Part shown: positions 1 to 64,000 of the stretch, piece after piece
Position numbering within the stretch: position 1 is the stretch's first letter
Layout of the letters: each line of letters starts with the position of its first letter
Origin: a phage
NCBI GenBank assembly: GCA_025677605.1
Contig: GCA_025677605.1_4110.1
Strand: one strand, 5' to 3'
DNA: 64,000 nt
The notes under the pieces: generated by a model
The model's input: only the letters and a program-made list of their open reading frames with translations
Databases searched by the model: none
Told to the model about the DNA's origin: nothing
Made by a program: the position numbers and the translations under genes

Positions 1-161
1 CCATGTGAGTCAACAACAATTTTTTTAGGAATTGGTGTATCTTCTTCGCATCGTTCTAATAAGATTTCCTGGGTGATTATTGGTGACGCTTGAACTGGAA
101 CCTTATTAGAACACCCAGTGATAAACATAAAAGTAATCAAGAATGTTAATATGTATTTCAT
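1..161 (-). CDS. o-spanin-like outer-membrane lipoprotein (Rz1-type); C-terminus lies beyond window start
   Basis: Minus-strand ATG at 159-161, not in ORF track because truncated; translation MKYILTFLITFMFITGCSNK... has a signal peptide and lipobox ITGC; ATGA overlap with stop of the upstream ORF. Confidence 0.5.
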   Translation of the reverse strand, partial: MKYILTFLITFMFITGCSNKVPVQASPIITQEILLERCEEDTPIPKKIVVDSH

Positions 162-532
162 TTAAATTTCTCTCTAGCTGCAAGTGAATTTTGTTTTAGA
201 TCATTCAAAAGTTTTACCCCTTCTTCATCTAAACATACATTTCTATACACTTCACGCTCAATAATAACTGGTACTTTAGTTTCTATTACCTTTGCATTAT
301 TTTGCATTATCTGTTTAGTTTCTACATAGTTTTTAGTATTTTGGCTTTCAATTTTACTTAAAGCCGCATCTACTTTCTTCTCTATTTTTAATTCAATACT
401 TTCTTTATACCCAGTATAAAAAGTATTAGCCTTCCAGCCACCAAAAGTACATGATGCCATCAGGAGAACAAACGCAATTGGTTTCCAGAACGGTATCAGT
501 ACTTTTGAAACAATAATATCTAGTACACTCAT
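158..532 (-). CDS. i-spanin-like protein (Rz-type: N-terminal membrane anchor, helical periplasmic part)
   Basis: 124 aa; hydrophobic N-terminal segment, charged helical remainder; immediately followed by overlapping lipoprotein gene, the usual two-component spanin arrangement. Confidence 0.5.
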   Translation of the reverse strand: MSVLDIIVSKVLIPFWKPIAFVLLMASCTFGGWKANTFYTGYKESIELKIEKKVDAALSKIESQNTKNYVETKQIMQNNAKVIETKVPVIIEREVYRNVCLDEEGVKLLNDLKQNSLAAREKFK

Positions 533-577
533 AATAATATCTCCTATAGATGATGATATTATTTAGAGTGCTGAAAA

Positions 578-1003
578 TTATCGTTTATCGATCATTGTTT
601 GTACATGTGCTACGAGATGTACGATTCTGGTATCACCTGATTCATACTTATCTTCGATCTCAACCTTAAATTCATCTTCAAGTTCCATGATCATTTCTAC
701 CCAGTCCAGTGAATCAAATTTGAATTTTTCTTCAATTTCTAAGGAGGTTAAATGTAAATTCATCAGTACATCTTTCTCTGATACATCACTATAACGACCA
801 GAAATGAATTTTGCAATTGCTTTTTCAACGTCAGATGGTTCACGTGTACGGTATTCTGGTTCAAGGAACCATTCACCCTTATTGATAGCTTCTAATTCTA
901 GTTTAATTTCATGCATTACTTTATAACGATCAGTACTTTTATGGATGCGACTAACTTCGCGATTCAGTACACGTAGTGCGTCTTTGATTTGTTCGTTTAG
1001 CAT
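578..1003 (-). CDS. acyl-carrier-protein-like domain protein
   Basis: C-terminal FDSLDWVEMIMELEDEFKVEIED matches the ACP phosphopantetheine-attachment motif (DSLD..VEL.M.LEEEF); likely ATG at 1003 with AAGGTG RBS (track start at 1012 is GTG). Confidence 0.55.
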   Translation of the reverse strand: MLNEQIKDALRVLNREVSRIHKSTDRYKVMHEIKLELEAINKGEWFLEPEYRTREPSDVEKAIAKFISGRYSDVSEKDVLMNLHLTSLEIEEKFKFDSLDWVEMIMELEDEFKVEIEDKYESGDTRIVHLVAHVQTMIDKR

Positions 1004-1017
1004 TTTTTTCACCTTAT

Positions 1018-1047
1018 AAAAAAAGAGAACCTCTCATGAAGTTCTCT
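1018..1047 (-). terminator. rho-independent terminator-like hairpin
   Basis: 7-bp stem agagaac/gttctct (1024-1047) followed on minus strand by U7 (plus-strand A-run 1018-1024). Confidence 0.5.
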
Positions 1048-1078
1048 TAGTTTATATCACTGTTTGTTGGTTGTCAAC

Positions 1079-3862: not shown

Positions 3863-3863
3863 T

Positions 3864-4493: not shown

Positions 4494-4577
4494 AATCCAT
4501 CCTTAAATTAGTTATTATTGGGTATTTATTGGTCTAAGTGGATTTTTTAGACCCATTTAGACCAATATTCAATAATA

Positions 4578-7863: not shown

Positions 7864-10605
7864 TTAACTCCAACGAGTACCAGATTGTGATGGTAACCCA
7901 GAACTAGCTGGGATAGCAGAACCACGATTGTAGGTACTTGGGCGGTATAGCAAGAATCTGGACACTTTTTCAGACTCGATTGATGCAATACCATTAGCAT
8001 CAGTTACTATCTTACCAATGTAGGTTGATGTCATAGTTTCTGATAATTGATATAGTGATATCTGATACGAAGCTGTAGATGTACCTCTATCCATAACCGC
8101 ATATATGTAGAATGTTGAATTATCTGGTGTAGTACTTATGGTAGATAAGTCTATCATAGTCGGTGGTATCTTTGCAAACTTTCCACCCAAGAAAACTGGT
8201 ACTTCTTGTGAAAAGTACACGTTGAACCCTTGTGCCACATCCTGTGAAGCAACAACTAAGTACTGTGATATCGTTTCATTACCAGATATTAGTTTATCCA
8301 TATCTGCTTCAGTAGTACCACATACAGCAAAAACTGATTTAGTTTGATAATCGTTTTTGTTCATTTGGTAATATCCAAACCCAATCCCTGGAATTGTACC
8401 TATATCAAATTGTGCGTTTGAAATATAAGTTGTTTCCATATATCGTTGACTTGAAATAATACCATTTTTCACTTTAGCAATCATGTTAGGATAACGAGTC
8501 CAACCTGGGGTATCAATGCCATATAAAATGTTCACACCTAAGTAGTTAAAACCACTAAACTTAGCAACAGTCATACCAGCCCAACGTTTGATCATTTCAT
8601 TTGGTGAAATTTGGAATGTATTCGTGATTGATGTATATCTTGCTGTATCAACACTAATACCACGTAAAATTATAGTACCACTTGTACCCAGTGCACTACA
8701 TGATATTTCGGAAAAAATAATATAACACACGTTGGTAGTACCGTTTAGTGCAGAAGTGACTGCAATAGATTTAGAATATGTAGTATCAGGTACATAATAA
8801 AAAACAGTTTTATGTTCAGTTATTCCAGTCAATCCGGCTTTAGCAACGGCATTATAACCTATACCTGATAATGTAGTTCCTGAAATTTCATATCTATCAC
8901 TGTTAAAGTCCATTGTAACAGGGTCGAATTTTCCATAAGCTGGTTTATCGATACCTTCTATTAAAGAAGATCCATAAGTGCTGACATTTCCATTGGCATC
9001 AACCAATGTTACCATACCTGCATATTTGTAATCAGTACTTAAATAGTGTCTATTACCTGATGGTGCAAAACCATTCATTGTGGTATTTTGTTCCAAGTTT
9101 TTATAACTATAAGTTGGATTCTCACCTATTTCAGTAAAAACTGTACTATCATAACCATAAGAAATTCCATCAGCAGTACCAGAACATGCAACAAGTATCT
9201 TACGTTTATCTACGAAACGAACACCTATTAAGTTTTCACCGACAGGGGAGCCATAAACTGGCATTACTTCTACACGTTTTAAATTACTACCAGTACGTGT
9301 TTTAGCAACCCAACTATCATAAGGTGTACCAGAAACTTTGTATGTTTGTACTGCATAGGTCGGCATGGATGACCATCTTGCTTTGGTAGTGAAAACAAAA
9401 CCATCAGAAGTTTGACAGATTGAACCATAGTTACCAAGTGCACCATCATAAAACCCTGTAAAGTTTTCCATATTGATTGAAAACGGGTTACTCACTGTTA
9501 TACTACCAGTTGATGTATTAGCTGATACTCTGATTGGACCACGTTCAGAACCGTCAAGTGTCATTGTTTTAGTACTGATATCATATGTAAAGCTGATACC
9601 AAGTGCATATACACCAGATGTTTTTGTTGCGGTAAAGACACGAAACCCTGGATATATCGCTACTCTTATTTTTGTACCATCAGGACTGATAACTGCTTGT
9701 GTATTAAATGCGTTATTTTCCCAATAATCTATTCTGGAAACACCATTATCATATGCTATTAGTGCATCACCACCTGAACCCAACACTGAATAACTATCAT
9801 AAACACGAATATTATTAGATGCAGTGTATGTTACATTTCTTATAGTTCTTCCTGAATAACCACTAATCTGTGTTACTGTCGAAACTGAACCAGTATTAAA
9901 TGCAGTTAAAGGTACTGTGTATATGATAAATGCACACCCGCGAACACTACTCAATACACTTGAATCCATACACCATATATAAACTGAATCATTTACGATG
10001 TGTGCATAGATTGGTTTATTTGTTATTGCTGTTTTTGGAATTCTGCAATGTTTGTGTGCTGATTCATTTAATGTTTCATTTGTTAATGTAAGGTAGTATG
10101 ATGCTCTATCAGTTGATTCCCAAAATAGTAATTCATATGCATTTGACCCATAAAATTCATAAATGTAATCAGTGCTTGGTAGCACAGAAGGTCTATACAT
10201 CGTGTTGGTTGTAATTATATTATCTTGAGTTAGTGTTTCTATATCTCTTATATTTTTAATATAAGCATAATAGTAACCATACGAACTTCCATTTGTACCT
10301 GCACGTAAAATTACACCAGTACCATCATTTTCAATGATACAAGGTTGCATTATTTTTGCAAATGAAAAGGAAGAAGCACCTTCAAATGTACCGTTAATAC
10401 TCATCGGTAGGTAATCTTGATCACCTACCCTTGAAACTGGAAGCATATCAAACATCTGATCTACTTCCGCTTTGTCATAATATTGGTAAGTGATTTTACC
10501 AGCAGAATCAGCAGGGAATCCATTAAAGGAACGTAATGCATACTTTCCATTAATTTTCAAATTCCCTAGTATTTCTGCGTTTCCTATAATTCGTCTCGAA
10601 GCCAT
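7864..10605 (-). CDS. tail fibre protein
   Basis: ~913 aa, Gly/Ser/Thr/Asn/Tyr-rich; C-terminal ~120 aa shared with the two upstream fibre ORFs; ATG at 10605 with AAGGA RBS (track start 10632 is upstream alternative). Confidence 0.7.
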   Translation of the reverse strand: MASRRIIGNAEILGNLKINGKYALRSFNGFPADSAGKITYQYYDKAEVDQMFDMLPVSRVGDQDYLPMSINGTFEGASSFSFAKIMQPCIIENDGTGVILRAGTNGSSYGYYYAYIKNIRDIETLTQDNIITTNTMYRPSVLPSTDYIYEFYGSNAYELLFWESTDRASYYLTLTNETLNESAHKHCRIPKTAITNKPIYAHIVNDSVYIWCMDSSVLSSVRGCAFIIYTVPLTAFNTGSVSTVTQISGYSGRTIRNVTYTASNNIRVYDSYSVLGSGGDALIAYDNGVSRIDYWENNAFNTQAVISPDGTKIRVAIYPGFRVFTATKTSGVYALGISFTYDISTKTMTLDGSERGPIRVSANTSTGSITVSNPFSINMENFTGFYDGALGNYGSICQTSDGFVFTTKARWSSMPTYAVQTYKVSGTPYDSWVAKTRTGSNLKRVEVMPVYGSPVGENLIGVRFVDKRKILVACSGTADGISYGYDSTVFTEIGENPTYSYKNLEQNTTMNGFAPSGNRHYLSTDYKYAGMVTLVDANGNVSTYGSSLIEGIDKPAYGKFDPVTMDFNSDRYEISGTTLSGIGYNAVAKAGLTGITEHKTVFYYVPDTTYSKSIAVTSALNGTTNVCYIIFSEISCSALGTSGTIILRGISVDTARYTSITNTFQISPNEMIKRWAGMTVAKFSGFNYLGVNILYGIDTPGWTRYPNMIAKVKNGIISSQRYMETTYISNAQFDIGTIPGIGFGYYQMNKNDYQTKSVFAVCGTTEADMDKLISGNETISQYLVVASQDVAQGFNVYFSQEVPVFLGGKFAKIPPTMIDLSTISTTPDNSTFYIYAVMDRGTSTASYQISLYQLSETMTSTYIGKIVTDANGIASIESEKVSRFLLYRPSTYNRGSAIPASSGLPSQSGTRWS

Positions 10606-10615
10606 ATATATTCCT

Positions 10616-11206
10616 TTACCATTCTGTCCCACTATTCACATCTGGTGTACCAGAACTGATAGGGATAGCTGAACCAATTTTTGTAGCACTTACTCTGAAG
10701 TCGTCAAATCTTGACACTTTATTTATACTGACCCCTGTAATGCCATCTGGGAAAACTGTCAGTTGTCCTATGTACATATTAACACTACTTTCAGGGCGTT
10801 GAGTTTTAGAAATGAGGTAGTCAGCTACCCCAACATCTAATATAACATATACATAATGTGTTTCAATATTAGTACCAGTAACTCCTGGGTCCGTTATTGT
10901 TTTAGCAGGGAGGGTATAAACCGCTCCCGCCATGAACAATGGTAATTCTTTACTGAAAGTCAATTTGAATCCAGCGGCAGTAATACCTAATGGTTCATTA
11001 CTGTAAAGTGAACCAAATTGTGATAACGGAAAGGAACTGGTAATGTAATTCACATCATCTGTACTCATGAGTGGTACATCAACATTCCCATTAGCATCAG
11101 CTTGATACACATTACCAGAACGATCAGTTATCGTGGTCCCAGTATTTTTTCCTTGTGATTTAACGGAAGCATACGCTTCCACATCAGATCTAAATTTATA
11201 AGCCAT
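10616..11206 (-). CDS. small tail-fibre-related protein
   Basis: 196 aa; C-terminus (...KVSRFDDFRVSATKIGSAIPISSGTPDVNSGTEW) is homologous to the C-termini of the flanking large fibre proteins. Confidence 0.6.
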   Translation of the reverse strand: MAYKFRSDVEAYASVKSQGKNTGTTITDRSGNVYQADANGNVDVPLMSTDDVNYITSSFPLSQFGSLYSNEPLGITAAGFKLTFSKELPLFMAGAVYTLPAKTITDPGVTGTNIETHYVYVILDVGVADYLISKTQRPESSVNMYIGQLTVFPDGITGVSINKVSRFDDFRVSATKIGSAIPISSGTPDVNSGTEW

Positions 11207-11216
11207 ATTATCTCCA

Positions 11217-13901
11217 TTACCAATTCACATTACCAGAACTTGAAGGGAACCCAGAACTAACTGGGAAGGAACTTCCGGCAGCGTCGAATGATGAACCAAA
11301 CAGGTCTAAACGCGAACGTTTTGCTATATTAATTTCGGTTATTTGTAAATTATCAGTTTTCACTGTACCAATCCAGAATATTGAATGAGTTTCAGCTAAT
11401 TCAGTTGTTGATATATGATAGTTTGCAATACCCTGTACTAATTTAATATACACATAAAATGTAGTATTGGCAGGATTTGCTTTCACAGTTGTTAAATCTA
11501 TATTTGATATTGGTAATGTATAGTGTTTACCGGATATCAGTACTGGTGTCTCTTCGGTGAAGTATATAATAAAACCTTGAGCAACATCTTGGGAAACAAG
11601 ACATATAAATGGATTTCCTTTATCAGTCCATGCATTATAATCCGCTAATGTTGTACCATATGTTCTAAAAATTGTTTTGTTATTATTATCTATACTTTGA
11701 AGAATACCAAACCCAATGTTAGGTAAAGCGAATGGTTGACCATCTAATGCATAGATCGGACGTGCACCAGCTATATGGAAATTATTAAATTGGGCTGTCG
11801 CTTTATCCACTGTAGCACGGAAAAATGGAGAGTTTGTATTACCAACTGTATTAAAGAAACCAGGAATACCACCACCAATGAAGTAGAAAGAACCCGCATC
11901 ATATATAGTAATACCAATACTTCCACTATCAAGATGATATGCGGTATCTGTTTTGTAATCCCCAGCTTGAACACTTTCATGTACTAAACGTTTGAACGAC
12001 CATGTTGTAATATCACCAGTTCTTGTATTGACATTCAATTCAACAACTCGAATATATAGACCACGGGCTGTAGTAGATGCTGCAAGAACACCAAAAACAG
12101 GAATATCAGTTTGTTGTGGAACAAATACAGATAATGTTTTTATTGATGCTGGTGATATATTCCATGAACTAGCAACTTTAGCAAATTCGGAATTTCTAAT
12201 GGAATTCATTATATCTTGTGACATACTGATTGTACCATTATTCAGTACATTACCTTTATAATCAAAACTAATTGGCGTTGATGTTCTATTATCAGCCACC
12301 AAAACACCACCATTAGTCGTTACCGTTGAACCAGAAATTGAACTTATAAAAATTCTAGATTCTGGTGTAGTTATAAACGCTCGGTCTGGTGTTGGTTCAT
12401 AGCCAAGAACATTACCATAGTCTAGAGACTTAAATGTAAAGTTCGGGGTAGCTTTATGTACAGCATAGGATGGATAAAAACGACCATCACCTGAACGTCT
12501 TGAATATTGCTTAGTACTGTTATTTGGTAATAACTCCACACCCACTTGGAATGAACCAACTGCTGAACCAAATCTTGGTGATACGACACCATTAATAAAA
12601 TCAGTTGCCGATACACTTCTAACATCCATTAAATCAAATAATGATTTGGGTGGGTATTTTGCATATGATATATTCAATGCTTCTGCAAGGTTTGGTGAAA
12701 ATGAGCAAAACGCATCCCCAGTTGATGGAACATAGCAATAATTACTGAAAATGTTACGTCCACCTGCGTGAAGATAAAACGGGTCAGTTGTTAAACATGG
12801 ACCAGATTCATTCATGCTTGTACCATTATCATAAACAGCAACTGGTGTAGTAGTTGTCATATTATCCAATGCACATTGCTTAGTAGCAATATCAAAAGTC
12901 ATACTAAAACTGTGTTGTGGTCGTATATCATATCTGCCGTTAGTCATCCACATATCGCCACATAATCTAAATTTAAATGTAGTTGTACCTGATTTCTGTG
13001 CAACATATAAATCTGGATCTGTCATATAAATACCAAACCCAATAATACCACTTGGAATTAAAACGTATGGATTATCATTGGTATTTGTTGAATTTATTTT
13101 CATAGTTGGAACAATATTGTCATCATATACCATTGCATTATAAAAAGTTCTTGTGGCCCAACCAGTAATTCTAGTAACACTATAAGTACCACCACCTGGG
13201 TTATTACTTGGACTAAAAGTAACTTTAACCACTGATATTTTAAGAGTATTGCTTGGTGTATCTAAACTGAAAAAGTATAATGCACCATCTTCTGCACGAA
13301 TAACAAATTGTACTTCACCAATTGGCCTAACTGAAGCATAGTCATCAATTAAAATTCCGGTATGCATTGCATCGTTCATTGTGCCATTATTAACGGATAC
13401 AAAAAGTTTATTAATTGAACCATTACTTGCCATACCACATGTAATATCATCACTACATGAATATAAATGGTATGCATAATAATCACCAAAATAATTTGGT
13501 TTATATGCACGAGTAGTATTAACCATACGACTTGTATTTGTTGTACCAACCGCCTGGGTCATATAACTATAATAAACCCCTTGTGTACTCCCATTTGTAC
13601 CAGGACGTAGCATTACTAAAGTGTTATCATCTTCCAAAAATAATTTTGTATTTCTGGATTTAGTATTTTCTGAAGAACCAACTGTTGTACCATTGACACC
13701 AGCAGGTAGATAGTTTTGTGTACCATAACGAGAAATGGGTAACATACCAACCATTTCCAGCATATCATCTTGTGTATATGCATCTATTGTGAGATTGCCA
13801 TTTTCATCAAATACGTTATCATTGATGCTCTGAACACTTCTCTTACCTTTGACTGTTACATTATGTGTAACATCAATGCCACCATATATTTTCTTTGCCA
13901 T
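11217..13901 (-). CDS. tail fibre protein
   Basis: 894 aa; fibre-like composition; C-terminal module QDVAQGF..YF..E.PV...GK...P......T homologous to the 913-aa fibre; ATG 13901 with AAGGGA RBS. Confidence 0.7.
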   Translation of the reverse strand: MAKKIYGGIDVTHNVTVKGKRSVQSINDNVFDENGNLTIDAYTQDDMLEMVGMLPISRYGTQNYLPAGVNGTTVGSSENTKSRNTKLFLEDDNTLVMLRPGTNGSTQGVYYSYMTQAVGTTNTSRMVNTTRAYKPNYFGDYYAYHLYSCSDDITCGMASNGSINKLFVSVNNGTMNDAMHTGILIDDYASVRPIGEVQFVIRAEDGALYFFSLDTPSNTLKISVVKVTFSPSNNPGGGTYSVTRITGWATRTFYNAMVYDDNIVPTMKINSTNTNDNPYVLIPSGIIGFGIYMTDPDLYVAQKSGTTTFKFRLCGDMWMTNGRYDIRPQHSFSMTFDIATKQCALDNMTTTTPVAVYDNGTSMNESGPCLTTDPFYLHAGGRNIFSNYCYVPSTGDAFCSFSPNLAEALNISYAKYPPKSLFDLMDVRSVSATDFINGVVSPRFGSAVGSFQVGVELLPNNSTKQYSRRSGDGRFYPSYAVHKATPNFTFKSLDYGNVLGYEPTPDRAFITTPESRIFISSISGSTVTTNGGVLVADNRTSTPISFDYKGNVLNNGTISMSQDIMNSIRNSEFAKVASSWNISPASIKTLSVFVPQQTDIPVFGVLAASTTARGLYIRVVELNVNTRTGDITTWSFKRLVHESVQAGDYKTDTAYHLDSGSIGITIYDAGSFYFIGGGIPGFFNTVGNTNSPFFRATVDKATAQFNNFHIAGARPIYALDGQPFALPNIGFGILQSIDNNNKTIFRTYGTTLADYNAWTDKGNPFICLVSQDVAQGFIIYFTEETPVLISGKHYTLPISNIDLTTVKANPANTTFYVYIKLVQGIANYHISTTELAETHSIFWIGTVKTDNLQITEINIAKRSRLDLFGSSFDAAGSSFPVSSGFPSSSGNVNW

Positions 13902-15278: not shown

Positions 15279-17084
15279 TTACATGTGTTGTATACGTTGA
15301 ATAACTTCAGCTTGTTTACCTTTATTGAACGGGCGACTATTTGGTGCACTAAGATATCCTGATACTCTGCGAATAACCGACATTGTACGTTCATTGCGGT
15401 TGTCACATACCGGACAATGGAAACCATTTTTATCTACACTAAATTCACCCTCAAAATCACATTCAAAACACTTATCGACCTTCTGATTAATACCAAAATA
15501 TGGAATTTTAGTATAAGCAAAATTTATTAATGTTTCAAGTGCTTGTATATTATTAGCTAGATTTGGTGTTTCGACATAGCTAATATTACCACCATTGCTT
15601 AGATAAGCAAAGTTTTCCTCATAATCCCATTTAGCAAAAGGTGTACTTTCAACCCATACTGGTTGATGGAATGAGTTAGTGATAAAGTCACGTTTCAGTA
15701 CTGAAGGATGTTTTGCCTCAATACAACGTGCAAATTTATAACATAGTGATTCTGCTGGTGTACCGTAAAGACTAAATGCAATGTTACTCTCTTTTTTGAA
15801 TTCATCACATTTTGCTTTCATGTAGTTCAAAATACTCATACAGAACTCTTTACTAATTGAACCAGTGAGGATCTCTGAGCACTCAGATAACCCAACATAA
15901 CCAATACTGATACTAGCATAACCATTATAAAATAAATGGTCAATAGTGTCTTCAGGATCAAGACGTGCAATCGCACCTTCAGCGAAAAGTATAGGGTTTT
16001 GTTTTGCCTTTGTACCTTTTAAACGTTCTACACGGTTCATCTGTGCTCTGTAAGCAATATTCATGTGCTCGTCAATCTTATCAAAGAAATCACCATCAGA
16101 CTCACTCTCAAGAGCAATTAGTGGTAAGTTGATAGACACAACGCCAAGGTTGAATCTACCATTGTATTTTTCTTCTCCTTGTATATTTTCCCATTTCCCT
16201 AAGAAACTTCTGCATCCCATAGGAGTAACAGGAATAGTTGTGCTTCCAGTAACTTTTTGATTCAAAGGTACTGATACAAAATCAGGATAGATGCGTTTAG
16301 CTGCACAACGCATAGCTAATTGTTTTAAGTCATAATTACAATCAGTACTGTTCATATTAATTCCATCCTGAAGAAAGAATATTACTTTAGGGAATACTGG
16401 AGTAATCTTATCTTTACCTAGTCCATTTTCATGTACTTTCAAATATTGTTCAGTGATTAGTTTTTCAAATTTAGATGTACCTAATCCTAAACTCAAAGAA
16501 ATGAACGCAGCCTGACCATTAGTACTGATCATTGAGTTTGTTTGATATAGAATTGTTTGACAACCGTCATAAACTTCCTTACGCAACTCATCTTCGATGA
16601 ATTCAGTACTAAGATTGTATTTCTTTTGTTTTTCTAGAAGTTTATCCCATGACTTTTGTACATATGGTGCAAGGCCAGTGTCAATGTGAGCCAACGACTG
16701 ACCACCGTACTGTGAACTTGCCACAGCCTGAACAATCTGTGTTAGTACTGTACAAGCTACCCCAAAGCTTTTTGGTTCTTCAATCTTGGCACAACCAATC
16801 ATGAAGCCATTAGCAAGCATATCAGGATAATTAACTAAACAACAGTTTGTTAATGGGCTAATGTAATAGTCTAAATCATGAATATGACCGTAACCTTCAT
16901 TATGCCACTTCATCAATTCATCAGGAATCACATCTTGGGAATAATGTTTAGAAAGAATACCTGCCAATAAATCACGATGTGTATTAACACATTTAGCGTC
17001 TTTATTTGCATTTTCGTTTGTTAAATCAGCGTTACTCTGGTTGAGGAAGTTAGTTACGTCCGTATATAATTTATCTATTTGCAT
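15279..17084 (-). CDS. nrdD: anaerobic ribonucleoside-triphosphate reductase
   Basis: 601 aa; C-terminal Zn-ribbon cysteines (CFECDF...CPVCDN) and glycyl-radical motif RRVSGYL; co-located with nrdG. Confidence 0.9.
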   Translation of the reverse strand: MQIDKLYTDVTNFLNQSNADLTNENANKDAKCVNTHRDLLAGILSKHYSQDVIPDELMKWHNEGYGHIHDLDYYISPLTNCCLVNYPDMLANGFMIGCAKIEEPKSFGVACTVLTQIVQAVASSQYGGQSLAHIDTGLAPYVQKSWDKLLEKQKKYNLSTEFIEDELRKEVYDGCQTILYQTNSMISTNGQAAFISLSLGLGTSKFEKLITEQYLKVHENGLGKDKITPVFPKVIFFLQDGINMNSTDCNYDLKQLAMRCAAKRIYPDFVSVPLNQKVTGSTTIPVTPMGCRSFLGKWENIQGEEKYNGRFNLGVVSINLPLIALESESDGDFFDKIDEHMNIAYRAQMNRVERLKGTKAKQNPILFAEGAIARLDPEDTIDHLFYNGYASISIGYVGLSECSEILTGSISKEFCMSILNYMKAKCDEFKKESNIAFSLYGTPAESLCYKFARCIEAKHPSVLKRDFITNSFHQPVWVESTPFAKWDYEENFAYLSNGGNISYVETPNLANNIQALETLINFAYTKIPYFGINQKVDKCFECDFEGEFSVDKNGFHCPVCDNRNERTMSVIRRVSGYLSAPNSRPFNKGKQAEVIQRIQHM

Positions 17085-27430: not shown

Positions 27431-28036
27431 TTATTGAATGATTCCCCATTTAACGAGATCTGATCTTCGTAATACAACGATATCCTCACCATGTTTAGTA
27501 CTGATATCAATGAGTGTTTCAGCGGGGATACCGTTATGTGCGTACAGTGTAAAAAGATACCCAACTTTAGTTGAGACTTGATGTGTAAACTCCATCAACT
27601 GTCTAACTGAAACGAATGTCGTATCTGGATCTGCACCATTCGTAGATACTAGTGAGATGTTATGTAAACCCATCACTGCGGTATCACTCATATCCCTACG
27701 TTCAGATGATGCAGAGAAAAAAACCAGACTACAAGACGAATTACATTGCTTTGGGACATAAACAGTTAACTTTTTAGCAGCCACAAAAAATCCCAAATCT
27801 AATCCTGCATCAAAATCTCCACCAGGTGATGTTATTGTTATAATTTTAAATCTTGTTTCTTTCCACAACTTCTTCACTTCTTGTACAGTTTCATCATTTA
27901 GTTCACCATCAATTGACACAACATGTTCATTTAATAGAAAAACAGATGATTTTTTTGAAACTTCTGCCGCTGCCGGAAAGTTTAATGCAGCGATTAAAAC
28001 AACGGTTTGTACAATCTCTTTCAAGATTCGTTTCAT
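27431..28036 (-). CDS. secreted ClpP/S49-like serine-protease-fold protein
   Basis: N-terminal signal peptide ending AAAEV; ITSPGGDFDAGLDL resembles the ClpP INSPGG..AGLAIYD motif. Confidence 0.45.
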   Translation of the reverse strand: MKRILKEIVQTVVLIAALNFPAAAEVSKKSSVFLLNEHVVSIDGELNDETVQEVKKLWKETRFKIITITSPGGDFDAGLDLGFFVAAKKLTVYVPKQCNSSCSLVFFSASSERRDMSDTAVMGLHNISLVSTNGADPDTTFVSVRQLMEFTHQVSTKVGYLFTLYAHNGIPAETLIDISTKHGEDIVVLRRSDLVKWGIIQ

Positions 28037-45369: not shown

Positions 45370-45393
45370 TATATCACCTAAATTAAAAGAAAA

Positions 45394-45411
45394 GGGATCA
45401 GTACTGATCCC
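45394..45411 (-). terminator. palindromic terminator hairpin centred on CAGTACTG
   Basis: perfect 18-nt palindrome gggatcagtactgatccc flanked by A-rich run; minus-strand U-rich tail; downstream of pseT. Confidence 0.5.
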
Positions 45412-45421
45412 TTTGTAATAA

Positions 45422-46666: not shown

Positions 46667-46920
46667 TAGATTACCTCAATAATATCATCAATTGAGATAC
46701 CAATACAATTATCGACAGTGATATTCAATGTAAAATCATCATCTACATATACATTAGTGATTTTACCATAAACATTCATCCCATCATAAGATGATTTATA
46801 ACGTACTCTTTTGTTAATATATTTTGCACGTAGAGTATTACTCTCACGGTACAATATATCCGTCAAACATTCTGATAGTACTTTATAATATAACAAATCA
46901 CTTGAATGATTGTTTTTCAT
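46666..46920 (-). CDS. small paralogue-family protein
   Basis: likely ATG 46920 (MKNNHSS...; track start is TTG); AKYINKRVRY motif. Confidence 0.45.
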   Translation of the reverse strand: MKNNHSSDLLYYKVLSECLTDILYRESNTLRAKYINKRVRYKSSYDGMNVYGKITNVYVDDDFTLNITVDNCIGISIDDIIEVI

Positions 46921-55257: not shown

Positions 55258-55793
55258 GGTTCTTTCCTCATGTATTTTATTACATCTTTAAAAAGTTTTA
55301 TTTTCAAGTCATTATCATCACCTGGTAGATAAGAACTGAAGCTTTCAAAATCATCACGCTTAGCAAAAGAACGCATTTCAGTTGAACTGTACTTGCTAAC
55401 GGTTCGGTCTATACCAGCTTGGATTGCTTTTATATTACGAAAATTATACAAGTTTCCATTGTATCTGTCAAGTACATTTTGAAAGTTTTCTATCCTGTCT
55501 GAACCACATATGAAAAGAACATCACTGTACTTACCATTCAATTCCTGCATAATATCAAAAAGATTATCTTCAGTACTGATGTTGTGTTGAATTCTTGGAT
55601 AGAAACCCTCAGTGTAATACATTTTCAATTCAGGTGGTAATGGATTCTTAATACAATCTTGTGTAGTACTAAGGTATATTTTTAAATCAGCATTGTATTG
55701 TTCTTTCATCGATACGGCTTTATCAAAAATTAACCCATGTCCCAAATGCACTGGATTTATACGTCCATACGTTACTATACAAGTGTCTTTCAT
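55254..55793 (-). CDS. HxGH-family nucleotidyltransferase, NMNAT-like (PPAT-like not excluded)
   Basis: TYGRINPVHLGH (T/HxGH motif) and C-terminal SKYSSTEMR (ISSTxxR-type motif). Confidence 0.6.
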   Translation of the reverse strand: MKDTCIVTYGRINPVHLGHGLIFDKAVSMKEQYNADLKIYLSTTQDCIKNPLPPELKMYYTEGFYPRIQHNISTEDNLFDIMQELNGKYSDVLFICGSDRIENFQNVLDRYNGNLYNFRNIKAIQAGIDRTVSKYSSTEMRSFAKRDDFESFSSYLPGDDNDLKIKLFKDVIKYMRKEP

Positions 55794-56311
55794 ATATTCT
55801 TCATCACCTGACCGATAGATTTAAGATGGTTGATTTTAGCTGGTGTTAAGTACTTATCCAGTACTATTAAACAGCTAGGGAATGGAGCACTATCAGTCTT
55901 TTTATCTGGTTCTTCAGGGATGCCAAATTTTAAACGTCCTTTAATAAAACAAATACAGTCACAAAGCTTAGATGCATATTCCTGAAATGCAATTGTATCA
56001 GTACGTGATGGAACAAGTATCAGTACTGTTGCACCATTATTATAAGCATCAACTGCCTTAGATAGCCAAGGTTTCAGGTCGCTGTATGGTGGGTTAAGAA
56101 AGACGATATTGTTTCCCCAATCCTGTGAAAGACTATCATCTTCCGGTGTAAAAAACTTGTCACATAATGCAGTTTCTTTAACACATGCTGCATCAAGTGT
56201 GAATCCCCAGACTTCATCCAAATCTTCAAAGAATTCCTTTGGAGTAGTCCAGTTATCTTTTCCAGTACTGAAGTGTACCGAATGTTTTTTCGAAGCATCC
56301 TTCTTCGACAT
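55790..56311 (-). CDS. DNA N6-adenine methyltransferase (small phage Dam-like family)
   Basis: 173 aa with catalytic NPPY motif (VFLNPPYS) and upstream FTLDAAC segment. Confidence 0.65.
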   Translation of the reverse strand: MSKKDASKKHSVHFSTGKDNWTTPKEFFEDLDEVWGFTLDAACVKETALCDKFFTPEDDSLSQDWGNNIVFLNPPYSDLKPWLSKAVDAYNNGATVLILVPSRTDTIAFQEYASKLCDCICFIKGRLKFGIPEEPDKKTDSAPFPSCLIVLDKYLTPAKINHLKSIGQVMKNI

Positions 56312-58192: not shown

Positions 58193-59032
58193 TTATTTGT
58201 CCTGGGTATTTTCAGTAAATTTCTTCCACAGTAGTAATGTATTTTGACGAATTATTTCAATATGTCTTGAACTAAATTGTCTTTCATTATCGTCCCATAG
58301 TGCATCTGAATTCAAAAATGCCAGAAATACAAATGCAACATCTTCTCGTGGGACATTGAATACTGTATTGTTCGTACATACACGATCCATTGGTACAGGC
58401 ATACCACCAGTACGATCACTGTACTGTAAGTCACGTGCCACCAGATTTACATCTTTGACGAATTTATGATTGATATAAGGCTTCAGAACGTTAAGGAAGT
58501 CATTATATCCATTATTGTGGTCAATTTCAAACATTACATGTTCAGTATTGTCCGCGTCTTCACAGTCGTTATTATTGCTATTTTTGAAATCAAAAAACCT
58601 TTCACTCATTCTACTGGAGTTTGAAGATGAACAATTACGTATACCACCAGAACGGCGTTTAATATTTTCTAAATCTTCATCAGTACTGGAATAATAAGTA
58701 AGATCATATGAATCATTACCAATCATAATACGCTTAGTATAATGGTTATAAACTATAAAGTCATAATCTTTAATACCAAGTAACATGAACTGGAATACTA
58801 ATTCATCCGGTACATCAACGAGTGCATGTTCAAAGTCTTCATATCTGGAACGGAATACAACATCCTTAAATCCACGGTAGATAATAAAATTACCAAAGTC
58901 GAAATAATTTTCATGCATATGGACATTTTCATTTCTGATGTATTCAGACGAAGCTGGTGCAACACGGTCATCTTCTGATGCGTAATGATCGGTTTCTTTA
59001 ACATTAAAGTTGATAATAAAATTTAATTTCAT
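58193..59032 (-). CDS. hypothetical protein
   Basis: 279 aa ORF. Confidence 0.5.
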   Translation of the reverse strand: MKLNFIINFNVKETDHYASEDDRVAPASSEYIRNENVHMHENYFDFGNFIIYRGFKDVVFRSRYEDFEHALVDVPDELVFQFMLLGIKDYDFIVYNHYTKRIMIGNDSYDLTYYSSTDEDLENIKRRSGGIRNCSSSNSSRMSERFFDFKNSNNNDCEDADNTEHVMFEIDHNNGYNDFLNVLKPYINHKFVKDVNLVARDLQYSDRTGGMPVPMDRVCTNNTVFNVPREDVAFVFLAFLNSDALWDDNERQFSSRHIEIIRQNTLLLWKKFTENTQDK

Positions 59033-59086: not shown

Positions 59087-59395
59087 TTAGTTTGAGGTTC
59101 CCCAGCAGTAGACTGGTTTCAAATTCTCAAGAGGATTAACTTCAGGTTTCAGTACTGTAACGCGAACTTCATAAGTACTTCCATCTGCACGAGTCATTGT
59201 TTCATAATGAATACTTTCAATGAACGTTTCATATTCTTCTTGTGAACGAGCACGAACTGCTGAAGAGTATTTCTTCTTAGTATCCGATTTTAAGGTAACA
59301 CTTACGAGTTCTGCTTCTTCGCCATTTTCAAGCTTGTTGAAATCAAACTCTGGTACACCTTCAAACATATCAAATTTCATTCCGTTGTCTTCCAT
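59087..59395 (-). CDS. hypothetical protein
   Basis: 102 aa ORF. Confidence 0.5.
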   Translation of the reverse strand: MEDNGMKFDMFEGVPEFDFNKLENGEEAELVSVTLKSDTKKKYSSAVRARSQEEYETFIESIHYETMTRADGSTYEVRVTVLKPEVNPLENLKPVYCWGTSN

Positions 59396-59448
59396 TTTAA
59401 ATTCCTTTTATATAATGTTTAATTAGTTTGTTTTAATAATCGGAGATA

Positions 59449-59835: not shown

Positions 59836-59901
59836 CTTTATCTCCGTTTATCAAAAAGATGCGAACATTATATCATTGAATTGTCATATGTCCAGATGAT
59901 T

Positions 59902-60204
59902 TTAGACAATATTTTCAATCCAATTTTCAAAGTCTTGAATTGCAAGGATGAACATATTCTCGTCTTGGAAGTCGAGGATGTGCTCGCTATATAGATAACT
60001 GATGTACTTACTGTCCTCTGTCTTTGTATTGTGCTTACAGTTCATGATAAGCATTTCAACAGCACGCTCATATGAACATGGATTCAAATACAATTTAGTA
60101 CCATCAGGGTGAACAACCTCTACTGCTCCTTCAGGAATAAAACGTTTCCCAGTATTAGGAGTATATGGTTGTGTCAAGAATTTAATTTCAAATTTAGTAT
60201 CCAT
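59902..60204 (-). CDS. hypothetical protein
   Basis: 100 aa ORF. Confidence 0.5.
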   Translation of the reverse strand: MDTKFEIKFLTQPYTPNTGKRFIPEGAVEVVHPDGTKLYLNPCSYERAVEMLIMNCKHNTKTEDSKYISYLYSEHILDFQDENMFILAIQDFENWIENIV

Positions 60205-60224
60205 ACTAAATCTATCTCCATGTA

Positions 60225-61061
60225 TTAACTTACTCTTTCAATATTTTCGAGAATAGTATTAACTATACTCATCTTACCACCTAACTGTTGGTAAGTTTTC
60301 AACTTATTAACTATGCCTTTACGTAAGATATCAAGAATCTCGTACTGCTTAGGGTTCAGTACTAACTCTGCTTGAAATGCTGCCAGCGGATCAAAAATAC
60401 CAAGTAATGATGCATCAGGTACATCCAGTTCTAATGTAAACGAATGTCGGTATCCAGAGGTTATAGTGGCGATTGTTTTATCACCTGTACGAGTGATATC
60501 CAAATCACACATCACTGGACGCCCATCTTCGGTGTTATATCTGAAAAAAGCAACACTACGCATAATAATCCCGTCTGATGACAAACGTTCTTGGAGTGTG
60601 ATGTTGCTTTCTTCTGTACCTTGTGTTAGACGGAAAGTTGTTTCAAATGATCGTACATTATTTTCGACAGTATATTTTGCAAATCTATCAGTACTACGAA
60701 CTGAAACTATACCACTGGCATTAATTCTACGATTAAAAACTATATCATTAATCGTGGTATCTCGGTAACGAATTGTATCTTCTGACTTGTAATAATGGAC
60801 TGATGGTGTGTTGAATATTTCAGACTTAAGATCTGAATCATATTCGTATGATAGTGAAGTTTCATAAGTCTCATTATTACGAATATTAATATCTAGTGTC
60901 GAAGGACGGATATTGTTTTTTACAGAAACAGTATGTCCTGTAATGTTATAAACATCATAAGATTCTCCATTTGCTGTTTTTACTGCACCAAATGTTTCAG
61001 GATTCTCAGATAGAATCTTGATATGATCAAGTACTGAATACTCTTTGAAGTTTAAGAACAT
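60225..61061 (-). CDS. hypothetical protein
   Basis: 278 aa ORF. Confidence 0.5.
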   Translation of the reverse strand: MFLNFKEYSVLDHIKILSENPETFGAVKTANGESYDVYNITGHTVSVKNNIRPSTLDINIRNNETYETSLSYEYDSDLKSEIFNTPSVHYYKSEDTIRYRDTTINDIVFNRRINASGIVSVRSTDRFAKYTVENNVRSFETTFRLTQGTEESNITLQERLSSDGIIMRSVAFFRYNTEDGRPVMCDLDITRTGDKTIATITSGYRHSFTLELDVPDASLLGIFDPLAAFQAELVLNPKQYEILDILRKGIVNKLKTYQQLGGKMSIVNTILENIERVS

Positions 61062-61069
61062 TTACATTT

Positions 61070-61106
61070 CCTCGGACAAAAAATTAGTCGAGATAAAATC
61101 TCGACT
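61070..61106 (-). terminator. rho-independent terminator
   Basis: 9-bp stem agtcgagat/atctcgact with loop aaa followed on minus strand by U-rich run. Confidence 0.5.
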
Positions 61107-61221
61107 GGTGTTTAATTTTTCCATTTTTTGCAGCTTTCTTGCGGTCCACGTGCACTTGAGCCTTATTAAACTCATTACAGTGCTTTGCAACAAAGTTGTT
61201 TACTTTAGATTTCTTAGCCAT
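61084..61221 (-). CDS. small basic protein (45 aa, below ORF-track cutoff)
   Basis: ATG 61221 with GGAG RBS; translation MAKKSKVNNFVAKHCNEFNKAQVHVDRKKAAKNGKIKHQSRFYLD. Confidence 0.4.
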   Translation of the reverse strand: MAKKSKVNNFVAKHCNEFNKAQVHVDRKKAAKNGKIKHQSRFYLD

Positions 61222-61223
61222 AA

Positions 61224-61697
61224 TTACTCCAGGTCTGGATCTTTCACTGTAAGGCTCTCGATATCACTTGCATATAGAACTACGTTGACTTGCTTCTCAG
61301 ATACTTTAAAGTCATGATAACTATCTTTGATTATGAAGTTGTCAAGTAGAAAACCCTTGGTAACGCACATCATAATTTTATCGTCTTTAATAGTATATGT
61401 ATTTTTCTTCTTATGCACTTCACTCTGTGGTGTGATAGAAGGATCATTACGAACAACACAATCAATATATTCTTCATTCGTATTCATTGGTATACCCATT
61501 ATAAATGAGTTTTCAGTACTGATAGTTAGTATAAAAATATTAGTACGTGGGCAATGGAAATGTTCATACATTGACTTGCTGCACAAGAAAAGGCATTGGA
61601 TAATGTCTCTTACGTTAAACATTATATCATGCACTTTGAAAGCGTCCAACTCTAAAATGTCATCAATCTTTCCGTTTTCAACAGTTTTAATCTCCAT
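61224..61697 (-). CDS. hypothetical protein
   Basis: 157 aa ORF. Confidence 0.5.
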   Translation of the reverse strand: MEIKTVENGKIDDILELDAFKVHDIMFNVRDIIQCLFLCSKSMYEHFHCPRTNIFILTISTENSFIMGIPMNTNEEYIDCVVRNDPSITPQSEVHKKKNTYTIKDDKIMMCVTKGFLLDNFIIKDSYHDFKVSEKQVNVVLYASDIESLTVKDPDLE

Positions 61698-61737
61698 GAT
61701 CTATCCTTGATCGTCATCGCACATCCATGTGCTGGTG

Positions 61738-62238
61738 TTACGACACAGCGTTTTCGTAATATTCTATTGCTTCCGAGATATTTTGAATTGCCTGTGCCTT
61801 TAATGATTTGTTATAGCGACCAGTAAATGAACCTAAATTCTTAATGAGATCAAGAAATAATGGAAGTACTTCAGATGTATCAGTAAAATCACACTGATAT
61901 AAAGTTCCCATCTGGAACAATTCACCGCCGTCTACGCACAACGTGTTAAAGTCTTTTTGTACTCCCTTTTCTTCATTGAAAATGAAATACGAAGTCCCCA
62001 TGTGGTGAAGATAAACACCATGTTCATCCTGAACGTGGCAGGGGGTAATACACATCGCCGTATTGTCAATATTATTTACTATCGTCAAACGGAGGCTATG
62101 TAATCCGAAAACTACAGTACTATTGAGTGTACTGCATTGTAAATGGTCATTGGTGATAGTAACTTTACTTGTCCTTTTGTCATCGAATGAACGCATAATC
62201 AAAGAAATGCAAAGTTTCATATCAGTTGTTAGTTTCAT
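61738..62238 (-). CDS. hypothetical protein
   Basis: 166 aa ORF. Confidence 0.5.
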   Translation of the reverse strand: MKLTTDMKLCISLIMRSFDDKRTSKVTITNDHLQCSTLNSTVVFGLHSLRLTIVNNIDNTAMCITPCHVQDEHGVYLHHMGTSYFIFNEEKGVQKDFNTLCVDGGELFQMGTLYQCDFTDTSEVLPLFLDLIKNLGSFTGRYNKSLKAQAIQNISEAIEYYENAVS

Positions 62239-62680
62239 CTAAAATACCCTTAATATGTTTGATTAAATTGACTAGTACTGATTTATCAAATGGATTATTT
62301 AGACCAATACACTCGTACTGGAATAAGTCACCATCAAGAATAACATCTAAATCAATATCTAACTTCTTATTGTTGGTATCAAACATAGTAACATTATCAG
62401 AAGAAACTGTCAACACTTTTTGTGAATTTTTAATCTTATTACTGATATAAACATCAATAAGTAATTTACTGTTCACTGTAACCGTTTCAAAGATGATTTG
62501 ACTAGTACCGTAAATGTATTTTACTGAATTATGTATTCGTGAATATTTTAATTTGTATAAATTAATACCATTGTACTTACATTTGGTATCAATTTTTAAT
62601 TTGCATGATAAGATAGCATTAACTAATTCATTTATATTAGTTAATCTTGTTTCGGCTATCGATAAAGTTGGTAAATTCAT
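62222..62680 (-). CDS. hypothetical protein
   Basis: 152 aa ORF. Confidence 0.5.
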   Translation of the reverse strand: MNLPTLSIAETRLTNINELVNAILSCKLKIDTKCKYNGINLYKLKYSRIHNSVKYIYGTSQIIFETVTVNSKLLIDVYISNKIKNSQKVLTVSSDNVTMFDTNNKKLDIDLDVILDGDLFQYECIGLNNPFDKSVLVNLIKHIKGILDETNN

Positions 62681-63101
62681 TATGTAATACCTTTAGGCAT
62701 TGTAATGTTTCTGACATGATATTTGAATCGAACTCAATACTATCAAATTTGATAAATGTACTTTGTGTGAAGAAGGTAGATTCCACATCGGTTGAATAAA
62801 ATGATTCATCAAAGAGATTAGTACTGAACATACCAGTTTTCTTTTTAAAGAACATCATGAATTTTGAATTATAACGAATGACGGCTTCATCTTTATTGAT
62901 GATGATACGAGAAATCTGTGTTCTCGTTTGTGTGAGAATATTGATTTGGAAAACATTTTTCTTAACTTCAACAATATCAACCATATAACCATCCCCACTA
63001 TAAAAGTTACTTCTAACTTGGATTGGCTTTGATGTGATATTGATAATTGCGTCTTGAATAAAAAAGTTTACCGTATCAATGTTTCCTAAAATGTCTAACA
63101 T
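62637..63101 (-). CDS. hypothetical protein
   Basis: 154 aa ORF; start may be internal because of 44-nt overlap. Confidence 0.45.
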   Translation of the reverse strand: MLDILGNIDTVNFFIQDAIINITSKPIQVRSNFYSGDGYMVDIVEVKKNVFQINILTQTRTQISRIIINKDEAVIRYNSKFMMFFKKKTGMFSTNLFDESFYSTDVESTFFTQSTFIKFDSIEFDSNIMSETLQCLKVLHNEFTNFIDSRNKIN

Positions 63102-63619
63102 AAATTCTCCTTAATAGCTGTCATATTTACGAGAAATTCTTCAAGTACTTCCTCTGTAATACGCTCTGTATACCAGAATATCACAATATCTTTTGAAAGA
63201 CGAACATTCATAAAAATATCTACTAACTCTCTGTAGTACTCTAGAGTTTCTATATCTTTTAGAATTAGTGAGTACTGAAACATAGATTCTTCAGTTAACT
63301 TAAATTCTGGATATAGTAATTCGTTAAATTCAATTGATTCAATCTGTACTTTTATTCCTTTGAAGTTATTGGTTATACAACCTGAATAATTATTTCGGTA
63401 CAACGCGGCATAATCCATGAATTTTGCTTTGTGATTAAAATCAAGAACAGTTTCACCTTTATATGACAATCGGTGGAACGCCGAGAACCTTGTAATTTCC
63501 CACGGTTGCTTAATATCTAGTTCTGTAATATCAATTTGATTGTGCATAAGATCTGTGAAAATCTCACCAATCTTCAATAGTAACTTAGTACGTACCAGTA
63601 CTGTCATTGAATCAGTCAT
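63095..63619 (-). CDS. hypothetical protein
   Basis: 174 aa ORF. Confidence 0.5.
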   Translation of the reverse strand: MTDSMTVLVRTKLLLKIGEIFTDLMHNQIDITELDIKQPWEITRFSAFHRLSYKGETVLDFNHKAKFMDYAALYRNNYSGCITNNFKGIKVQIESIEFNELLYPEFKLTEESMFQYSLILKDIETLEYYRELVDIFMNVRLSKDIVIFWYTERITEEVLEEFLVNMTAIKENLC

Positions 63620-63966
63620 TATACACCTTCATATTCATCAAGAAAATCTTCGATAATCATTTCAGCTTCATCCATATGCATAGCATCAACTTCAACAATA
63701 CGAACTTTAGATGTATCCCAAATCATATAACTAGGAACATTGTCCGGCTCGTATTCATTTTTGTACTGAACTGCATCGTAACCTTCAGTATCACAATACT
63801 CAATAAGTGATCGCCATTCGTCATCACTACCCATATCCTCACACAGAAGCACGTTATCAACGTCAACTTCTAAGGTATGCAAGTACACCGTGTCAGCATC
63901 AACAACGTTCAGTGGGCTTCTCAGCTTGCGTAACGCAGCCTCAAGAGCACTATGCTTCCCTCCCAT
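63619..63966 (-). CDS. acidic hypothetical protein
   Basis: 115 aa, Asp/Glu-rich. Confidence 0.5.
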   Translation of the reverse strand: MGGKHSALEAALRKLRSPLNVVDADTVYLHTLEVDVDNVLLCEDMGSDDEWRSLIEYCDTEGYDAVQYKNEYEPDNVPSYMIWDTSKVRIVEVDAMHMDEAEMIIEDFLDEYEGV

Positions 63967-64000
63967 ATGTAAACCACCATAAGGAATGTAGAAGTTGTCA

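Follow-up and report, generated by a model that had tools for sequence, protein, structure and literature searches.

We considered a stretch of phage DNA of 64,000 nt (contig GCA_025677605.1_4110.1; hereafter the window, always at its full length) in which the palindromic hexamer AGTACT is strongly over-represented. The window belongs to an Asteriusvirus jumbo phage, with 98.7% identity to Escherichia phage A4 and ~83% to 121Q, both of which are members of this genus of RaK2-like jumbo myoviruses, with a genome of ~350 kb. Its G+C content is 34.8%, and 96 of the 99 long open reading frames (ORFs), which were picked greedily and represent the gene set used here, lie on the minus strand. According to the annotation of relatives, the window carries nrdD/nrdG, dCMP deaminases, DNA and RNA ligases, a polynucleotide kinase, PhoH, Sir2, ClpP-like proteases and tail genes. 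The features to which we refer below are the following:

1-64000, no strand: the AGTACT population, 174 copies, 57 of them as CAGTACTG, in a uniform Poisson-like scatter
7864-13901, minus strand: three genes, of 913, 196 and 894 aa, where the motif is at its sparsest in the window
15279-17084, minus strand: nrdD, with five AGTACT copies (15697, 16344, 16521, 16605 and 16744)
45391-45414, minus strand: terminator-like hairpin with a 10-pair stem and a T-run, the stem centre being CAGTACTG
46877-46894, plus strand: AGTACT abutting TATAAT (AGTACTTTATAAT), the sole such site in the window
55790-56311, minus strand: Dam-family DNA N6-adenine methyltransferase, 173 aa (PF05869, E=4e-32)

Copy number and shape of the motif

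The exact count was 174 copies of AGTACT in 64,000 bp (2.72/kb) versus 21.6 expected from base composition, that is, an 8.1x excess, which bears out the over-representation first claimed from the letters alone (the sequence-only reading). That reading had listed copies at 2351, 2531, 16344, 16521 and 45400, all five of which are present, and had given nine copies for the interval 17.0-20.0 kb, in which the actual number is eight. Among the 6-mer palindromes of the window, strong enrichment is seen for AGTACT alone: the runner-up, CATATG, reaches just 2.5x, and ~20 other palindromes have zero copies. The GTAC core was found 489 times versus 203 expected (2.4x), and the enrichment rises by steps moving out from this core (2.4x, 4x, 8x, 22x and 88x), the last value being that of the octamer CAGTACTG, with 57 copies versus 0.65 expected. 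The logo is symmetric, (T)C-A-GTAC-T-G(A). Precisely, position -1 is C in 53% of the sites, while position +1 is G in 57% and T in 22%, so the flank preference that had been noticed by eye (C on the 5′ side, G or T on the 3′ side) is real. The two half-sites are cooperative, since the number of octamers exceeds the 32 copies expected from the half-sites given GTAC.

The distances between consecutive sites have a coefficient of variation of 1.00, the largest gap (1979 bp, after position 27497) has P=0.55, and there is no bias along genes. Both regular spacing and clustering of AGTACT were ruled out by this Poisson-like spacing. As for the three genes at 7864-13901, the two large ones have 0.7-1.5 AGTACT/kb versus a mean of 2.8/kb, and the homologues of this region are annotated as structural proteins in an Erwinia phage. 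Large, perhaps structural, genes at 7864-13901 and 28855-31023 alike were observed to carry AGTACT at densities 2-4 times below the window mean, possibly as a consequence of more recent acquisition or of stronger protein constraint.

Coding context, site retention and distribution

Within the 99 ORFs we counted 155 copies of AGTACT, versus 39.2±6.0 by within-gene synonymous shuffle (z=19) and 22.0±4.9 by codon permutation (z=27). For CAGTACTG the in-gene count was 50, versus 3.3 and 0.9, respectively. The excess over the synonymous shuffle is therefore fourfold, clearly beyond the two-fold range within which the sequence-only reading would have withdrawn its claim. Its second ground for withdrawal was a single codon phase, and here the copies clearly use three, in line with the differing phases that had been noticed in that reading: 78 are read as AGT-ACT (Ser-Thr), 54 as nnA-GTA-CTn (Val-Leu) and 23 as nAG-TAC-Tnn (x-Tyr-x). 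The remaining 19 copies lie outside called ORFs, several of them probably within uncalled genes.

The motif is also imprinted on the proteins of the window, in which Ser-Thr dipeptides are at 1.61x and the reverse Thr-Ser at 0.82x, Val-Leu at 1.53x versus Leu-Val at 0.98x, and Gln-Tyr at 1.55x versus Tyr-Gln at 0.92x. AGT-ACT encodes 78 of the 141 Ser-Thr pairs (55%), versus 19 expected from codon usage. By this asymmetry between Ser-Thr and Thr-Ser, it is the DNA word that shapes the protein, and not the reverse. The codon pair ACT-AGT (Thr-Ser), which makes a SpeI site, is absent from the window genes versus 9.8 copies expected. We also observed that in the window ACTAGT is at 0.3x, CTAG at 0.42x and CCAG/CTGG at ~1.9x, a pattern that resembles the fingerprint of E. 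coli very-short-patch repair.

It is hardly credible that the AGTACT excess follows from the way in which codons, dipeptides or oligonucleotides are used, or from the avoidance of other palindromes: codon usage does favour AGT, ACT and GTA, and many other palindromes are avoided in the window, but z values of 19-27 against codon-aware nulls, three codon phases, symmetric flanks, the Ser-Thr versus Thr-Ser asymmetry, a density in non-coding DNA that is the same or higher, and a site retention exceeding that of matched flanks (see below) all stand against it, and a codon or dipeptide artefact in particular was ruled out by both shuffling nulls, the three phases and the peptide asymmetry.

Site retention was evaluated against 121Q, with which 33.9 kb of the window could be aligned at 79% identity. 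Of 100 AGTACT sites, 63 were intact at the orthologous position. Hexamers in general were retained at 30%, as were those matched to AGTACT in composition, and those in the same phase lying no more than 30 bp away at 31%. With stratification by local identity, 29 sites of 100 were expected to be retained. A location bias behind the retention was ruled out by the same-phase flanking control and by this stratification. The outer C/G pair showed no special retention, as 9 of 28 octamers were kept. The sites that differ between the window and 121Q were mostly changed at 2-3 positions, and no substitution type was dominant. In the codon alignment of nrdD, the window has five sites and 121Q seven, three of them in identical columns; an Erwinia phage has three sites at other columns, and the unrelated phAPEC8 has none. 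Hence, sites are under purifying retention within the genus, and their positions turn over between genera.

The relatives were sampled as 15-50 kb stretches, and 50 kb of K-12 were used as the E. coli control. All the enterobacterial RaK2-like genera that were sampled show the excess, which amounts to 785 copies in 271 kb (8.7x) when they are pooled: 121Q (8.4x), RaK2 (6.9x, replication module), Cronobacter phage GAP32 (6.3x), and the Erwinia phages pEa_SNUABM_12 (Eneladusvirus, 8.7x), Hallingskeid (9x, 57 copies in 20 kb) and Kaldavass (7.6x, 50 copies in 20 kb). It is absent in the more distant jumbo relatives, namely Pseudomonas phage PA5oct (1 copy versus 8.4 expected, 0.1x) and Agrobacterium phage Atu_ph07 (2 versus 5.0, 0.4x), and in T4 (4 versus 6.3, 0.6x), RB49 (0 versus 7.8) and phAPEC8 (4 versus 14, 0.3x). 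In the E. coli K-12 control, AGTACT was found 3 times versus 11.6 expected (0.26x); with about one copy per 370 bp in the phage and one per 16 kb in the host, the hexamer is ~45-fold denser on phage DNA. The phage bias thus runs opposite to that of the host and of other coliphages.

Taken with the three phases, the symmetric flanks and the fourfold excess over the synonymous shuffle, the 63 sites kept of 100 (29 expected) and an excess common to the clade uphold the earlier suggestion that selection acts on the DNA and not through codon or dipeptide usage. No mention of the AGTACT excess, or of the absence of GCGC described in the next section, was found by full-text literature searches or in the published accounts of RaK2, CBB, 121Q, Sharanji and fEgEco12 and those comparing jumbo phages.

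A second lineage, GCGC loss, the state of the DNA and promoter copies

A scan of IMG/VR for clustered AGTACT copies recovered the jumbo phages and, in addition, a second lineage represented by many contigs of ~30-34 kb with 36-45% G+C. These are AT-rich lambda-like prophages of ~33 kb, encoding a serine recombinase, a GpA-type terminase, a lambda-type portal, a protease-capsid fusion, a J-like tail fibre and a CI-like repressor. Homologues of their terminase were found in Salmonella, Klebsiella, Erwinia, Enterobacter and E. coli genomes, some of them integrated beside host genes, and there was no near match for this family in the GenBank phage collection. In 37 prophage-like loci (377 kb) AGTACT was counted 1339 times versus 120 expected (11.1x). 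Close relatives of this lineage differ in density, a Salmonella prophage being at 2x, a Klebsiella prophage at 5x and others at 8-10x or above, and site retention is above background solely among the dense members. Across the prophage family we observed densities from 2x to >15x (L017, L018, L024, L124, L129, L131, L132, L211-L217 and others). The tetranucleotide profile of the second lineage correlates with that of the jumbo phages with r=0.86, versus 0.1-0.4 for control phages. The same signature in unrelated enterobacterial prophages represents a convergent presence.

A gene common to the two lineages that could read the motif was looked for by BLAST of the ORFs of a near-complete second-lineage genome against the sampled jumbo DNA, which covers part of the jumbo pan-genome only. 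Within this sampled DNA, the sole shared proteins were a lysozyme and a small mobile HNH protein that A4 has and the window lacks, and to that extent a shared reader gene was rejected; a Pfam search of early second-lineage proteins gave nothing informative in this respect. The HNH protein is one of the products of A4_396-398, which are missing from the window (gap from ~61061 to 61224), and it occurs also in the prophage family and in GAP32. Nearby, the A4 homologue of 59087-59395 is a putative HNH endonuclease by annotation, with no family found in a Pfam search, and a paralogous pair of ~279 aa without Pfam match lies at 58193-59032 and 60225-61061 (minus strand), with small ORFs between. 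In the prophages, (A/T)TGATCATTTT repeats were observed beside the CI-like repressor, at divergent promoters (L132:7681-7841, L017:7655-7750 and L124:8972-9132), and are probably operators, with a Dam site in them. AGTACT as the prophage immunity operator was rejected, in that those operators carry TGATCA repeats instead.

The excess of AGTACT is accompanied by the loss of another palindrome. GCGC has zero copies in the window versus ~57 expected, zero in all the sampled DNA of six jumbo relatives, and three in 377 kb of the second lineage versus 591 expected. In contrast, E. coli (1.6x), T4, RB49, phAPEC8, PA5oct and Atu_ph07 have GCGC at the expected level or higher. In both lineages GTAC is the top over-represented tetranucleotide and GCGC the top under-represented one, and the loss of GCGC far exceeds the avoidance of CCGG, GGCC and CGCG (0.3-0.8x). 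The 6-mers with zero copies in the window (~20) include CTGCAG, GAGCTC, GTCGAC, CTCGAG, GCATGC, CAGCTG, TCCGGA and TGGCCA, as well as GGTACC and CGTACG, both at zero although their GTAC core is 2.4x enriched. These absent hexamers represent classical restriction avoidance standing beside the AGTACT excess. A double deamination of methylated GCGC or AGCGCT, giving GTAC or AGTACT, was discarded because the numbers do not suffice, as only ~6 AGCGCT are expected per 64 kb versus an AGTACT excess of ~150.

Regarding the state of the DNA, the Dam-like methyltransferase that the sequence-only reading had placed at 55790-56311 was confirmed by its match to PF05869 (E=4e-32). Enzymes of this family are typically GATC methylases, and therefore the window enzyme, which has homologues of at least 60% identity in only ~52 phage records, fits the GATC signal of the relatives and is probably not linked to AGTACT. 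The relatives in question are Hallingskeid and Kaldavass, for both of which the AGTACT excess and the GCGC absence were verified, and in which nanopore sequencing of native versus whole-genome-amplified DNA found only GATC and CCWGG modified and, in Kaldavass, also TGCAT (PMC11780129). Given these modifications in phages bearing the excess, the proposal that AGTACT is the target of the phage Dam-like enzyme is not supported. As for nicks, the same study reported the associated drops in coverage for one unrelated Pseudomonas phage alone and not for the two jumbo relatives (PMC11780129). Ten restriction enzymes gave the predicted cuts in the DNA of the Asteriusvirus fEgEco12 (PMC13070987), so a global base substitution is probably not present. 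No methyltransferase co-occurring with the excess was found across the enriched lineages sampled. The N4-cytosine methyltransferase of the Erwinia phage is confined to Eneladusvirus and was rejected as a clade-wide factor. The second-lineage methyltransferase phrog_3820 was likewise rejected: it has 61% homologues in RB49-like phages, yet RB49 has no AGTACT.

Some copies of the motif are embedded in promoters. In the early region of 121Q, at 137-156 kb (within L135:1-20000, 136-156 kb), a run of ORFs of 45-110 codons, with a sigma-70-type promoter for each, has 12.3 AGTACT/kb in non-coding versus 3.9/kb in coding DNA. The motif stands there in fixed-register arrangements, namely AAAGTACTTGCAAA...TATAAT, TTGACA-N-AGTACTGTATAAT and AGTACTATTGACA. 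RaK2 (L184) has the same promoter design, AAGTACTTGACA-N10-C-AGTACT-G(T/G)(A/C)TAAT, and 22 promoter-context AGTACT sites in 11 kb. In these early promoters, one AGTACT overlaps the -35 element and another, ~20 bp apart, abuts the -10 element; in the AGTACTGGCATAAT variant, the TG after the motif would sit at the extended -10 position. The early regions of 121Q and RaK2 are made up of dozens of tiny ORFs, and the 5′ leader of each also shows a conserved G+C-rich hairpin, e.g. GGGGAATAGTTCCCC, between the -10 element and the ribosome-binding site.

In the window only the site at 46877-46894, hence 1 of 174 copies, has a promoter-like context, and this TATAAT is probably fortuitous, being on the plus strand amid minus-strand genes. 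With a single copy in such a context, promoters cannot explain the AGTACT excess of the window. The link with promoters may have a function, or may be one more sign of a pressure on the genome as a whole. The 18-nt palindrome at 45394-45411, read from the letters as a terminator, does form the centre of an intrinsic-terminator-like hairpin on the minus strand, the sequence of which, from 45414 to 45391, is AAAGGGATCAGTACTGATCCCTTT and then TCTTTT (TCTTTTAATT).

Explanations for the excess and what they imply

The reading that we tentatively adopt, with somewhat less than even confidence, is that AGTACT is a positively selected, highly iterated and most likely unmodified site of dyad symmetry for a dimeric DNA-binding factor. 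It is suggested by the symmetry and the cooperative half-sites, by a selection that changes proteins, by retention, random placement and turnover, and also by the reverse bias of the host, the convergence in prophages of the same hosts and the embedding in early promoters. A homodimer would read AGTACT, as its 2-fold symmetry and cooperative half-sites suggest, and the benefit would scale with the density of the sites and not with their position. At early promoters the factor may act as an operator-type regulator of the host RNA polymerase, while the ~1000 intragenic copies may concentrate it on phage DNA or distinguish phage from host DNA. Since no plausible reader gene common to the two lineages was found in the DNA sampled, the evidence leans to a host factor or to independent readers.

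Several points weigh against a recognition site of this kind. No candidate reader protein was found in the ORFs common to both lineages, as far as the partial jumbo pan-genome goes. With intragenic copies in their thousands, a regulator of the classical low-copy kind would be titrated away. The promoter copies belong to paralogous cassettes, at positions where a promoter accepts any sequence, and may reflect a genome-wide pressure rather than a promoter function. A molecular drive, like the one proposed for uptake sequences, would give Poisson spacing, turnover and an imprint on the proteome just as well. Finally, the nanopore data come from relatives and were obtained via Tombo and manual inspection, so that weak signals could be missed.

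We considered, with similar reserve, AGTACT as a possible phage counterpart of the cyanobacterial HIP1 (GCGATCGC). Both are short perfect palindromes that recur every ~0.4-1 kb, whatever the reading frame and also outside coding DNA, and in both the inner hexamer core, flanked by favoured outer bases, is lineage-specific and kept above chance. The differences are that HIP1 is found in cellular genomes, while AGTACT is found in phages and runs opposite to their hosts' usage, and that HIP1 is GC-rich and has no known promoter role. Moreover, the inner sequences of HIP1 are reported to be methylated by orphan methyltransferases (PMC6604393), whereas AGTACT appears unmodified in the relatives (PMC11780129).

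Other iterated words are comparable in part. The uptake signal and DNA uptake sequences (USS/DUS) of Pasteurellaceae and Neisseriaceae resemble AGTACT in having ~one copy per kb, in all frames, with a peptide imprint and turnover, and they are often inverted pairs in terminators, to be compared with the window terminator at 45391-45414. Unlike AGTACT, they are non-palindromic 9-12-mers that are bound by a competence receptor and spread by uptake and recombination; no phage uptake step is known. Chi (GCTGGTGG) is likewise a short word for self and foreign DNA that acts by density, is several-fold enriched and works anywhere, but it is asymmetric, strongly strand-oriented and read single-stranded by RecBCD, whereas AGTACT is palindromic with symmetric flanks. 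An enrichment of Chi itself was discarded, as GCTGGTGG has only one copy in the window. As a side observation, the Chi-like fragments CTGGTG, CACCAG, CCACCA and TGGTGG are 4-8x enriched on both strands (window, L005 and L129), probably owing to GGT/GCT strings of Gly-Ala codons.

Among the alternatives to a recognition site, a molecular drive, in which biased repair, recombination or packaging creates or preserves AGTACT wherever it is tolerated, is somewhat unlikely; its analogues would be the drive proposed for uptake sequences and Elhai's model of methyl-directed repair for HIP1. Poisson-like spacing, between-genus turnover, the higher non-coding density, the proteome imprint and the range of density from 2x to 10x among close second-lineage relatives would all follow from it, and a fingerprint of host very-short-patch repair is visible in these phages (CTAG ~0.45x, CCAG/CTGG ~1.9x). 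A drive, however, should consume some neighbouring word, and no one-mismatch neighbour is depleted (AGTATT 0.96x, AATACT 1.07x, AGCACT 1.07x, AGTGCT 2.3x); lost or gained sites mostly differ at 2-3 positions, with no dominant substitution. On these two grounds a conversion of the very-short-patch type was rejected. In addition, the replication machinery differs between the two lineages, no AGTACT methylation that could direct repair was detected in the relatives, and an 8-11x excess is far above the effect of very-short-patch repair on CCWGG.

Unlikely, too, is a nuclease or topoisomerase site, where AGTACT would be nicked for clamp loading in T4-type late transcription, would start recombination-dependent replication, or would be cleaved by a type II topoisomerase (in this variant, a cut A|GTAC|T with a 4-base stagger), any breaks being sealed before packaging. 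Type II-like enzymes typically have palindromic hexamers as their sites, and the jumbo phages encode a T4-like topoisomerase II, several HNH proteins, a ligase and a gp55-like late sigma factor. Besides, enriched nick motifs are known in phage families (T5, phiKMV-like phages and, with WACTRTGAC, the Pseudomonas tf/Rembedalsseter group), which resemble AGTACT in their conserved, family-wide enrichment beyond sequence similarity. Those motifs are asymmetric, lie on one strand in ~10-13 copies per genome and are physically nicked (PMC11780129), whereas AGTACT has ~1000 palindromic copies, and the virion DNA of the relatives has no reported nicks. Machinery of this sort is missing from the small lambda-like prophages that make up the second lineage, and cut sites tend to vanish by gene conversion rather than accumulate. 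A gyrase site in particular was ruled out, the published E. coli gyrase motif being a degenerate 130-bp pattern and not a hexamer (PMC6379681).

Improbable to the same extent is the idea that AGTACT is a modification-free identity tag, in which a dimeric reader would steer transcription, protection or replication to the phage, while a partner would destroy or silence DNA containing GCGC, which occurs ~every 150 bp in the host and is absent from the phage. It would be the equivalent, without base modification, of the discrimination that T4 achieves by hydroxymethylcytosine.

Quite unlikely, in our opinion, is that a phage methyltransferase acts on AGTACT/GTAC, lifting the restriction pressure and giving the site an epigenetic function. 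Other coliphages avoid AGTACT/GTAC (RB49, 0 of 7.8; phAPEC8, 0.3x), ~1000 sites seem to need protection, and these phages encode 2-3 methyltransferases; moreover, the abundance of HIP1 in cyanobacteria is said, in Elhai's work of 2015, to track methyltransferases for its inner sequence. Nevertheless, only GATC, CCWGG and TGCAT were seen modified in the two excess-bearing relatives (PMC11780129), the enriched lineages share no methyltransferase, and protection accounts for tolerance but not for an 8-fold excess or for site retention.

Equally doubtful is the titration or hijack of a host protein having a site with an AGTACT core, for which the one named candidate is the nucleoid-occlusion factor SlmA, with site consensus GTGAGTACTCAC. 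The signature is found only in phages of Enterobacterales, the two lineages that bear it are unrelated, no reader gene common to both was found in the DNA sampled, and the host genome has AGTACT at 0.26x. In this case, however, the flanks are opposite to those of SlmA sites, with G at -1 and C at +1 at only 0.4x. A locus has at most one copy of GAGTACTC, and the full 12-mer GTGAGTACTCAC was never found; SlmA sites were rejected on these grounds. We know of no other host protein with AGTACT specificity.

Returning to what the excess means, short palindromes are commonly viewed in phage genomics as purged by restriction pressure. AGTACT is itself a type II site (ScaI), and the genomes that carry it avoid other palindromes to an extreme degree, but here the sign is reversed: AGTACT is at 8-11x where GGTACC and CGTACG are absent. 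We have a type II site driven up ~ten-fold in genomes that purge GCGC and ~twenty hexamers, by a pressure strong enough to alter the dipeptide usage in hundreds of proteins. On the practical side, high AGTACT with absent GCGC is a simple signature for spotting such phages in sequence data and, as RaK2-like jumbo phages are in therapy development, ~1000 ScaI-type sites without protection would be expected to act as a liability for their host range. If AGTACT were indeed an identity tag, this tag would have evolved convergently, or would have been shared, in giant lytic and small temperate enterobacterial phages. The presence of both extremes in unrelated, widespread prophages points to a general and undescribed interaction between phage DNA and the enterobacterial cell, and it gives a handle on how phages with ordinary bases might tell their own DNA from that of the host.

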